This document shows positions 18,791 through 47,205 of a DNA stretch of 64,000 nt, one piece after another. The stretch lies in contig JBJXHD010000006.1 in assembly GCA_046160845.1 (NCBI GenBank), positions 15,174 to 79,173 of the forward strand. The letters are read 5' to 3'. The notes beneath the pieces were generated by a model, which worked only from the letters and a program-made list of their open reading frames with translations, had not been told where the DNA came from and did no database searches. This DNA is from Hyphomicrobium sp. GTDB taxonomy: Bacteria > Pseudomonadota > Alphaproteobacteria > Rhizobiales > Hyphomicrobiaceae. The translations under genes and the position numbers were made by a program. How positions within the stretch are numbered: position 1 is the first letter of the stretch; each line of letters starts with the position of its first letter.

Positions 18791-19042
18791 GTGCCAATGC
18801 AAAACGGTGCCATCTATGAAACGTGGGTTTATCACCAGCGACTTTCGCCAGCTGGAAAGATTATTCGGTCGGATGAACTCGCCGATTACCGTCGGCGCGG
18901 TTGGGTGGATACTCCGTCAAAATATGGCCGCGGGCCGCGCGGAATATTTTACTCCGCTATTAGCTATCTCGAGACGTGGAACAGAACTGAATTGATGACG
19001 CTCGCGGCGCTTGCAATTGCGGCGGCAGCTTTATTGATATGA
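18791..19042 (+). CDS. Hypothetical 83-aa protein with C-terminal hydrophobic tail
   Basis: GAGG upstream; GWVDTP motif; terminal TM-like LAALAIAAAALLI; AT-richer codons than neighbours. Confidence 0.5.
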   Translation: MPMQNGAIYETWVYHQRLSPAGKIIRSDELADYRRRGWVDTPSKYGRGPRGIFYSAISYLETWNRTELMTLAALAIAAAALLI

Positions 19043-19050
19043 TTTGACAC

Positions 19051-19228
19051 CGTCATCCTCGAACGCGGGAGCGCAGCGACCAAGTTCGGGGATCCAGCAC
19101 AAAACGTGTCGAAGACGCATCATCAAGGCGCTCCCCAAAAGGAGCGCCTTGCGTATTTTTGAGCCGTCGGCGAGTCTTACGCTGGATCCCCGGCCTCGTT
19201 CGCTACGCTCATTCGGCCGAGGATGACG
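19051..19228. repeat. Large REP/MITE-like palindromic element (CGTC-tagged)
   Basis: Terminal inverted repeats CGTCATCCTCG (19051-19061) / CGAGGATGACG (19218-19228); inner inverted repeat GGGGATCCAGC (19088-19098) / GCTGGATCCCC (19181-19191). Confidence 0.85.
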
Positions 19229-19293
19229 TTCGAAAATGCGCGGCTCGCGCCGCGCTCGGCCGAGAATGACGAAAGTGCGATGGGGCGGCATCC

Positions 19294-19599
19294 ATGCACG
19301 CCAAGGCTCCGACCGTTTACATCATGGCGAGCCGCAGAAACGGGACGCTCTACATCGGCGTTACGAGCTACCTTTCCGGACGGAACGCGGAACACAAACA
19401 GGACCTGATCGAAGGGTTCACCAAGCGCTACGGCGTCCACTTGCTCGTTCACTACCAGACGTTTTCGACGATGCCTGACGCCATTGCGCGCGAGAAGAAA
19501 CTCAAGAAATGGCCGCGCGCGAAAAAGATCGCACTGATTGAAGCGACAAATCCCCATTGGCTCGATCTGACAGAGCAGATCGCCGACTGGCGGGAATAG
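19294..19599 (+). CDS. Stand-alone GIY-YIG nuclease (YhbQ/UPF0213-like)
   Basis: VYIMASRRNGTLYIGVT, R..EHK, FTKRYGV..LV, AIAREKKLKKW.R..K..LIE..NP.W.DL. Confidence 0.9.
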   Translation: MHAKAPTVYIMASRRNGTLYIGVTSYLSGRNAEHKQDLIEGFTKRYGVHLLVHYQTFSTMPDAIAREKKLKKWPRAKKIALIEATNPHWLDLTEQIADWRE

Positions 19600-35220: not shown

Positions 35221-35309
35221 TGTCATCCTCGGCGCGCGAAGCCGACCGCCGCCCAGACCCCCTCATCCTCGGCGCGAGACGGCGCAGCCGGAGCAAGCCG
35301 AGGACGACG
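35221..35309. repeat. Degenerate palindromic repeat copies
   Basis: TGTCATCCTCGGCGCG at 35221, CTCATCCTCGGCGCG at 35262, closing GCCGAGGACGACG at 35297-35309; between convergent genes. Confidence 0.65.
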
Positions 35310-44493: not shown

Positions 44494-44612
44494 CGTCATC
44501 CTCGGGCGAGCGCGGCTTGCTGCTTACCGTTCGGCAGCCTCGATCGACAAGACTCCCTCTGCATGTCATCCCGGACAAGCCGCGACAGCGGCGCGCTCCG
44601 TCCGGGATGACA
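44494..44612. repeat. Palindromic repeat pair (one half copy, one perfect short copy)
   Basis: CGTCATCCTCG at 44494; TGTCATCCCGGAC (44564-44576) / GTCCGGGATGACA (44600-44612) is a perfect 13-bp inverted repeat. Confidence 0.85.
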
Positions 44613-46929: not shown

Positions 46930-47040
46930 TGTCATCCCGGGCGAGCCCGCATTTGCGGCGAGACCCGGGACCCAGAACCTCACGACTTCAGTCGCCCTGG
47001 GTCCCGGATCGCGATGCCCGGCATCGCGTCCGGAATGACA
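46930..47040. repeat. Palindromic repeat element
   Basis: TGTCATCCCGG / CCGGAATGACA ends; inner CCGGGACCCAG / CTGGGTCCCGG. Confidence 0.85.
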
Positions 47041-47062: not shown

Positions 47063-47205
47063 CGTCATCCTCGCGCGAGCGCGGCATGAGCCGCGTCGAA
47101 GCGCGGGGAACCAGCACAAAACTTCTATCGCATTATCGAGCCTTTGGCGCATCCCACGCTGGATCCCCGAACGCATTTGCGTTGCCCGCGCGTTCGAGGA
47201 TGACG
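47063..47205. repeat. Palindromic repeat element related to the 19051 copy
   Basis: CGTCATCCTCG / CGAGGATGACG ends; inner GGGGAACCAGC / GCTGGATCCCC; shares CCAGCACAAAAC with the 19051 copy. Confidence 0.85.

Follow-up and report, generated by a model that had tools for sequence, protein, structure and literature searches.

The subject of this report is a short locus in a 64,000-nucleotide stretch of DNA from Hyphomicrobium sp. (contig JBJXHD010000006.1, positions 15,174 to 79,173), which is referred to here as the window. The locus contains a gene, ssn, that encodes a small GIY-YIG nuclease and is preceded by a palindromic composite of hairpin repeats. It is very probably an Ssn/SRM pair, namely a one-domain GIY-YIG endonuclease together with its cognate hairpin repeats, the Ssn-related motifs (SRM). 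Evidence for this assignment comes from the family membership of the protein, the architecture of the repeats, their association with ssn genes across genomes, and the synteny of the locus. The Ssn/SRM system was published in 2025 and has thus been rediscovered here, and the idea that the nuclease cuts the hairpin, raised in an earlier note on this DNA, was already in print.

The system was described by Chenal et al. (Nat Commun 2025; PMC11893778), who defined the Neisseria motif NTS (CGTCATTCCCGCGMAVGCGGGAATCYRG) and the broader class of SRM that accompany homologues of NMV_0044 (ssnA; NMB0047) across bacteria. The SsnA protein from N. meningitidis contains 94 amino acid residues and is a single-domain GIY-YIG enzyme of the cd10448 family (GIY-YIG_unchar_3), in which Y6, Y17, and E64 are the residues that were mutated. 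The SsnA proteins from three Neisseria species and from Wolbachia bind the NTS/SRM hairpin solely as single-stranded DNA (ssDNA). SsnA cleaves a few nucleotides 5' of the hairpin and ignores the complementary strand, double-stranded DNA (dsDNA), and RNA. The three bases 5' of the NTS palindrome govern cleavage, and the C just 3' of it is the most crucial for binding. In N. meningitidis, SsnA reduces transformation by NTS-bearing DNA. Within 500 bp, 71% of the ssn homologues have at least one SRM and 42% have them on both sides (all PMC11893778). A search of the literature revealed no paper on the Ssn family later than this one.

The gene itself is an intact open reading frame (ORF) for a GIY-YIG protein of 101 residues, stand-alone as had been noted earlier, and it is the sole GIY-YIG gene in the window. 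Residues 7-78 of the product match PF01541 with an E-value of 6.7e-14, and no other Pfam match was found. The AlphaFold2 model, with a mean confidence score (pLDDT) of 85.9, displays one compact β-β-α-α-β-α-α domain and no additional DNA-binding domain, in keeping with the Ssn format of a single GIY-YIG domain in a protein of under 150 residues. Its structural neighbours in the PDB are GIY-YIG domains, the nearest of which is 1ZG2 (TM score 0.56-0.60), along with Slx1 and UvrC; no solved Ssn structure is among them. Sequence searches of NCBIfam and of the PDB with the window protein gave no informative match.

For comparison with SsnA, a 94-residue ORF found by tblastn on the gonococcal chromosome in PLSDB was employed and taken as the N. 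gonorrhoeae orthologue. This ORF contains Y6, Y17, and E64 and has NTS copies on both sides. Note that PLSDB lists 2.17-Mb N. gonorrhoeae chromosomes as plasmids (L089, NZ_CP119140.1) and that the ssnA orthologue is unannotated in the gene table. The window protein and the gonococcal orthologue are 60% identical over 87 residues, with an E-value of 4e-35 and a coverage of 93% of the 94 residues. The Ssn family is delimited in PMC11893778 by a BLASTP E-value of 1e-10 or lower and a coverage of at least 75% against Neisseria SsnA CAX49033.1, and the window protein lies within both limits, as measured against the gonococcal orthologue rather than against meningococcal CAX49033.1. Residues Y9, Y20, and E67 align with Y6, Y17, and E64 at equal spacing, and R30, H34, and N86 are also retained. 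A Nitrosomonadales homologue that is bracketed by canonical NTS shows 58% identity to the window protein, and in many phyla genes with canonical NTS at their flanks encode proteins that are 55-65% identical to it. On the basis of its amino acid sequence, the product of 19294-19599 is assigned to the Ssn family (cd10448). The earlier designation of the protein as YhbQ-like was rejected, given that the alignment with E. coli YhbQ contains 8 identities in 28 positions, is limited to the region of the GIY-YIG motif, and has an E-value of 0.03.

Attention had also been drawn to an unusual tyrosine in the segment GVTSYLSGR, and it had been suggested that the gene copy might be decaying. The tyrosine is real. 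Indeed, none of 120 homologues shares the D26Y replacement (101 have D, 8 have N, and 4 have E) or E55Q (118 of the 120 have E), and both result from single-base substitutions, in codons 26 and 55, respectively. Decay, on the other hand, was rejected. The reading frame is intact, and Y9, Y20, R30, H34, E67, and N86 are all kept. Of the 37 columns with a conservation of 95% or higher, the protein departs from the family at one, a number equalled or exceeded in 50 of the 120 homologues. With a threshold of 80% conservation, its deviation equals the median of the homologues.

The region upstream of ssn, 19051-19228, had been described as a nested palindrome of 178 bp, and this description holds. 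The palindrome is imperfect, with arms of 78 nt that are 71% complementary and are separated by 40 nt. As ssDNA it folds at -67.1 kcal/mol (z = -5.2), and none of 200 shuffled sequences folds as well. Each arm is itself a hairpin, and the centre consists of a GC hairpin followed by a T-run. The architecture is that of two inverted, tail-to-tail oriented Ssn-related hairpin motifs arranged around a core of 81 bp, and not that of one long motif. When the two units are folded singly as ssDNA, the basal stem of each has 10 bp and occupies the place between CGTC and CCAG, which is also the register of the Neisseria NTS. The right unit ends shortly before the ATG at 19294; the gap reported earlier is present, with a length of 65 nt and not 66 nt. 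The extra right end that had been noticed within the gap, GGCCGAGAATGACG, lies exactly at 19258-19271 and is part of a truncated reverse unit, which matches the 5' half of the unit at 44494 and that of the unit at 47063. In total, three units are located within 245 bp upstream of ssn, two of them full variants and one truncated. The hairpin of the core is 11 bp long with 8 GC pairs, and the segment 19124-19161, which includes the T-run, scores as an intrinsic terminator in a terminator scan. It probably ends transcription coming from the side of nrdJ, the upstream gene for a class II ribonucleotide reductase. No Rfam family matches the palindrome region. The coordinates of the various features are provided in Table 1.

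Table 1. Features of the ssn locus and of the related repeats in the window.
Feature	Position	Strand	Description
ssn, GIY-YIG nuclease, Ssn family	19294..19599	+	101 residues, single domain; intact ORF
SRM forward unit, left arm	19051..19098	+	CGTC-ATCCTCGAAC-loop-GTTCGGGGAT-CCAGC; matches the unit pattern
Composite core, 81 bp	19099..19179	+	terminator-like hairpin 19124-19151, then CGTATTTTTG
SRM reverse unit, right arm	19180..19228	-	minus strand reads CGTC-ATCCTCGGCC-loop-GGCCGGGGAT-CCAGC; matches the unit pattern
Truncated SRM, 5' half only	19238..19271	-	minus strand reads CGTCATTCTCGGCCGAGCGCGGCGCGAGCCGCGC; lacks the closing stem and CCAG
Second composite	46930..47040		unit 46931-46974 (+), 23-bp core, unit 46998-47039 (-); stem variant TCCCGGG / TCCGGA
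Third composite	47063..47205		unit 47064-47113 (+), 46-bp core, unit 47160-47204 (-)
Degenerate relatives	44494..44612		left-end fragment 44494-44519; closed 49-bp palindrome TGTCATCCCGGAC...GTCCGGGATGACA at 44564-44612
Degenerate relatives	35221..35309		TGTCATCCTCGG... and CCTCATCCTCGGC...GCCGAGGACGACG, between convergent patatin-like and HerA-like genes

The repeats are not restricted to the ssn locus. With at most one mismatch, CGTCATCCTCG occurs 15 times in the window versus an expectation of 3.2. The pattern for a full unit, GTCATYCYSG-N18-42-CSGGRAHCCA, identifies six units, which make up exactly the three composites listed in Table 1; none is expected, and none was found in 100 shuffled sequences. 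All six units retain the GTC 5' of the stem and the C 3' of it. They represent a long-hairpin variant of 44-50 nt with the basal stem ATCCTCGNNN/NNNCGGGGAT. The second composite is positioned directly 3' of the stop codon of a methylmalonyl-CoA mutase gene. The core of the third, 47114-47159, is a shorter homologue of the core at 19.1 kb and is without the terminator hairpin. The cores of the window composites are ∼70% identical.

Relatives of the palindrome had been placed earlier at 35.2, 44.5, 46.9, and 47.1 kb. All four were recovered, the first two in a degenerate or partial state. The 49-bp palindrome at 44564-44612 folds at -21.5 kcal/mol (z = -6.6). Together with 35262-35309 it belongs to a "closed" type in which GTCAT pairs with ATGAC and the CCAG end is absent, as though a unit's 5' half had been fused with the reverse complement of itself; such elements would be without the 3' C that is required for Ssn binding in Neisseria. 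It had further been stated that there is no transposase in the window. This is correct for the genes next to the dispersed repeats, to which the check was restricted: they are housekeeping genes, and none encodes a transposase. Two other approaches to the repeats were of little use. Generic hairpin finders were rejected as too unspecific in GC-rich sequence ("GTC + 8-bp stem + C" gave 93 matches versus 76 expected, and a looser variant 40 versus 33). A metagenome scan with the 17-mer CGTCATCCTCGAACGCG returned almost entirely chance matches in coding sequence, with a true unit in one of 80 loci and ssn in none of the 80.

Within the window alone, one repeat adjoining one gene is not statistically significant, and the juxtaposition acquires significance only because of the comparison across genomes. 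More than 5,000 relatives of the window Ssn are known to exist in the databases searched, from which 80 loci with 10-kb flanks were sampled in species-representative genomes; the count of the association took in 83 ssn genes. The relatives are 52-65% identical to the window protein and occur in the Proteobacteria, Planctomycetota, Chloroflexota, Cyanobacteria, Patescibacteria, and other phyla. A BLAST comparison of the flanks revealed that the sequence just 5' of the start codon recurs, reverse-complemented, just 3' of the stop codon. This recurrent sequence, CGTCATTCCCGCGAAGGCGGGAATCCAG, is nearly identical in unrelated phyla.

The published regular expression for SRM gave 114 matches within 200 bp of the 83 genes, or 3.4 per kb, against a background of 0.077 per kb in the rest of the sampled loci (1.2 Mb). 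The earlier note had proposed a test for enrichment of the repeats near GIY-YIG genes; the enrichment found here is ∼45-fold, and it extends across many phyla. Matches lie upstream of 44 of the 83 genes, downstream of 42, and on both sides of 28, in agreement with the published values of 71% and 42% (PMC11893778). The repeats have a preferred orientation, being forward upstream of the gene (37 of 44) and reverse downstream of it (27 of 42), and they are often only 1-14 bp from the coding sequence.

Closer to the window, the order nrdJ, composite, ssn is common to six Hyphomicrobium-type genomes, these being Hyphomicrobium sp. GJ21 (locus L001) and five further assemblies or metagenome contigs (L081-L083, L084, L085, and L086). 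The six syntenic loci are counted as one conserved arrangement and not as six independent events. In all of them nrdJ lies upstream of ssn. A unit-core-unit composite is positioned directly upstream of ssn in these relatives, and in three of them 10-17 bp separate its right end from the start codon. Upstream of ssn in L001, L084, L085, and L086 there is a homologous core that includes the terminator hairpin; the hairpin is absent from the composite of L081, which has a single reverse unit downstream of the gene. Three composites surround ssn in L084 (L084:9600-10520): upstream are a copy truncated at its 5' end and a complete copy, downstream is another complete copy, and the annotated start codon of ssn falls inside the right unit of the second. 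Among these genomes the NrdJ proteins are 82-87% identical and the Ssn proteins 61-73%.

Because the order of nrdJ, composite, and ssn is conserved in the six genomes, ssn is a resident, vertically inherited, and fast-evolving gene of the Hyphomicrobium lineage, with which the composite has been kept. The composite has stood beside ssn ever since several Hyphomicrobium-type genomes shared an ancestor. In L001 the ssn promoter is probably located inside the composite, since only 10 bp separate the latter from the ATG. As an additional observation, the window contains an ORF of 83 codons without a Pfam match between nrdJ and the composite (18791-19042), and unannotated ORFs of 112-207 codons occupy the corresponding position in L081, L084, and L086.

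How the window Ssn might function can be considered in light of the published biochemistry on its homologues, which supports the proposal of the earlier note that the enzyme recognizes and cleaves the hairpin; the 60% identity to SsnA and the retained frame of the NTS point in the same direction. For the substrate specificity, the cut site, and the cellular role, we infer the following from analogy with the characterized SsnA. The enzyme would act on ssDNA only, with the complementary strand, dsDNA, and RNA being ignored. It would bind the hairpin repeat by reading the sequence of the stem and the C directly 3' of it, and it would cut a few nucleotides 5' of the conserved GTC. The predicted cognate substrate is the long-hairpin variant CGTC-ATCCTCGNNN...NNNCGGGGAT-CCAG of 44-50 nt. 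It keeps the frame of CGTC and CCAG, which is where mutagenesis in Neisseria placed the determinants for cleavage and binding. Because the two units of a composite lie tail-to-tail around a short core, each DNA strand would begin the element with a cleavable forward unit. The likely role in the cell is the site-specific cutting of repeat-bearing ssDNA, whether incoming, replicating, or recombining, and such cutting would modulate recombination and horizontal transfer, as in Neisseria.

Several observations weigh against the assignment of the locus as an Ssn/SRM pair. The published regular expression, HGTCWYN(0-2)YYVSBRHN(0-5)WNVSBRGN(0-2)RNCYNB, has no match in the window, and when its loop is relaxed to 30 nt it matches three of the six units, none of which is adjacent to ssn. 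Because the published expression misses both of the adjacent units, their cognate status is deduced from frame, position, and conservation. The fold energies of these two hairpins are no better than those of shuffled sequences (z = -0.8 and -0.7), and as ssDNA the whole palindrome could fold arm against arm instead. Downstream of ssn, the window has no intact unit. Finally, D26Y and E55Q, which affect columns with a conservation of 84% and 98%, might alter activity or specificity.

The architecture of these loci brings to mind a second explanation, in which Ssn mobilizes the repeats much as the RAYTs, or REP-associated tyrosine transposases, are coupled to repetitive extragenic palindromic (REP) elements. 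The enzyme would nick SRM-core-SRM composites, and likewise SRM-ssn-SRM cassettes, at their outer ends and so promote their copying to new positions, and the palindromes would be its non-autonomous derivatives. One nick per strand, followed by copy-out, fill-in, or template switching, would yield new composites and tandem arrays, with the upstream composite serving as the "master" copy and Ssn as a hydrolytic GIY-YIG counterpart of REP/RAYT. The arrangement of SRM, gene, and SRM, in which the nearest units are often 1-14 bp from the start and stop codons, is indeed like that of an insertion sequence, and the composites and the cassette have a common architecture. Across phyla, the hairpin stays nearly the same and so does the protein, which suggests that the two have spread together by horizontal transfer. 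In L084, ssn is surrounded by three composites, and no transposase adjoins the dispersed copies in the window. The earlier note had suggested a search for empty sites and target signatures, and a difference in presence was found: in L086 a composite (L086:2449-2592) fills the gap between the ALAD (hemB-like) and DUF2155 genes, and there is none in this gap in L001 or L084. The gap measures ∼25 bp without a repeat in L001 and contains a different tandem repeat in L084, and the flanks are too diverged for an exact empty site to be recognized. No target-site duplication or conserved target was observed by eye at eight composite ends, whose only common feature is that a pyrimidine precedes CGTCAT and a purine follows ATGACG. 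The authors of PMC11893778 raised the same possibility in their Discussion, where the resemblance of NTS-ssnA-NTS to an insertion sequence and the parallel with REP/RAYT are pointed out and mobilization and domestication are put forward as a hypothesis. With one forward unit per strand of a composite, a single strand would be cut once and not excised. In addition, GIY-YIG enzymes hydrolyse DNA with no covalent intermediate, and because of this the step of strand transfer is missing. The ssn gene occupies one syntenic locus in the six genomes, the window copies are old, with cores that are only ∼70% identical, and a window of 64 kb is compatible with a transposase elsewhere in the genome. Mobilization of the repeats by Ssn is regarded as unlikely, and the window locus does not strengthen the idea by much.

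The gene itself might instead be the mobile entity, a selfish, homing-like cassette for which the hairpins are ends or landing sites, with the window copy being a fixed and possibly domesticated remnant. In keeping with this, protein identities of 55-65% extend across the Proteobacteria, Planctomycetota, Chloroflexota, Cyanobacteria, and Patescibacteria, and multiple ssn copies per locus or genome occur (L024, L054, and L047/L061). One case is that of L047:9897-10409 and L061:9897-10382, two contigs of one deltaproteobacterial metagenome-assembled genome, in which a whole SRM-ssn-SRM unit of ∼500 bp is duplicated with 91% identity. The copies have a perfect 17-bp terminal inverted repeat, CATAAGCGCTAACTTAA / TTAAGTTAGCGCTTATG, and are flanked by 12-bp direct repeats, GGGTTGGAAGGG/GGGTTGGGAGGG around one copy and CCCCCCAGCCCC, present twice, around the other, a signature of terminal inverted repeats plus target duplication. 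Because the unit is bounded by this different inverted repeat and not by the hairpins, however, it points to another transposase acting in trans, and the duplication resembles the product of a transposition in which a different enzyme carried ssn along as cargo. A word similar to the terminal repeat is also found next to ssn in L036 and L066. In Hyphomicrobium, ssn is syntenic and vertically inherited, and its divergence parallels that of its neighbours at a faster rate. A search of a phage collection with the window Ssn gave no homologues. A homing-like cassette is considered quite improbable on these grounds.

It could also be argued that the juxtaposition is a coincidence, the palindrome being simply an intergenic element behind nrdJ, of the terminator or REP-like kind, and the gene an unrelated, YhbQ-type nuclease for DNA damage. 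The core of the composite does hold a good intrinsic-terminator-like hairpin, and the juxtaposition lacks significance when only the window is considered. This explanation is scarcely credible, given the negligible similarity to YhbQ (E 0.03 versus 4e-35 for SsnA), the ∼45-fold association of repeat and gene across the 83 genes, and its conservation at the nrdJ-ssn locus in six genomes.

As an Ssn/SRM pair, the window locus can be compared with the known systems. With the Ssn/NTS system of Neisseria it shares a single GIY-YIG domain of ∼100 residues that is 60% identical to the orthologue and has equal catalytic spacing, hairpins with 5' CGTC and 3' CCAG beside the gene, and repeats dispersed in intergenic regions. 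It differs in that the Neisseria motif is 28 nt long with the stem ATTCCCGCG, whereas the window hairpins extend over 44-50 nt with a long, partly structured loop, and the two beside ssn escape the published SRM pattern. In the window, moreover, the intact units are upstream of ssn only, with the one nearest to the gene in reverse orientation, within a conserved composite that has a terminator-like core. The Neisseria intergenic mosaic elements (NIMEs), which are repeat units flanked by dRS3 inverted repeats, and the REP elements and bacterial interspersed mosaic elements (BIMEs) are likewise short intergenic hairpin mosaics, inverted, with variable cores, and often at the 3' ends of genes. 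REP elements and BIMEs of enterobacteria go with HUH Y1 transposases, the RAYTs, whereas the enzyme of the window is a GIY-YIG nuclease, and the window type differs further in that its core and the gene are jointly conserved in several genomes.

Both the RAYTs and the TnpA proteins of IS200/IS605 resemble Ssn in being encoded by a small gene bracketed by hairpins that are recognized as ssDNA, with the repeats amplified genome-wide. The chemistry is different, in that the former are HUH/Y1 enzymes that form a covalent 5'-phosphotyrosine, whereas Ssn is a one-metal, hydrolytic GIY-YIG enzyme with an unrelated fold; for IS200/IS605, unlike for Ssn, transposition has been demonstrated. The YhbQ/UPF0213 group (E. 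coli YhbQ; cd10456; BH0048, PDB 1ZG2) also consists of a stand-alone GIY-YIG domain of ∼100 residues, but its similarity to the window protein is confined to the GIY-YIG motifs, and we know of no association with hairpin repeats that has been reported for it. The GIY-YIG homing endonucleases have a separate DNA-binding domain and reside in introns or as free-standing phage genes, whereas the window protein is a single domain encoded at a syntenic chromosomal locus.

The basic picture published in 2025 is unchanged by the window locus. Before the Ssn family, no class of site-specific nucleases that cut ssDNA only had been described, and each pair of Ssn protein and hairpin may have its own specificity. 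The locus adds such a pair from a Hyphomicrobium-type alphaproteobacterium, with a predicted substrate of 44-50 nt that falls outside the published pattern. Because that pattern misses a hairpin of this length, current censuses of SRM probably undercount the long-hairpin variants. The arrangement of nrdJ, composite, and ssn provides a clean system for studying the expression of ssn and its possible regulation by the hairpins, the possible cutting of long-loop hairpins, and the part that Ssn may have in the spread of the repeats.

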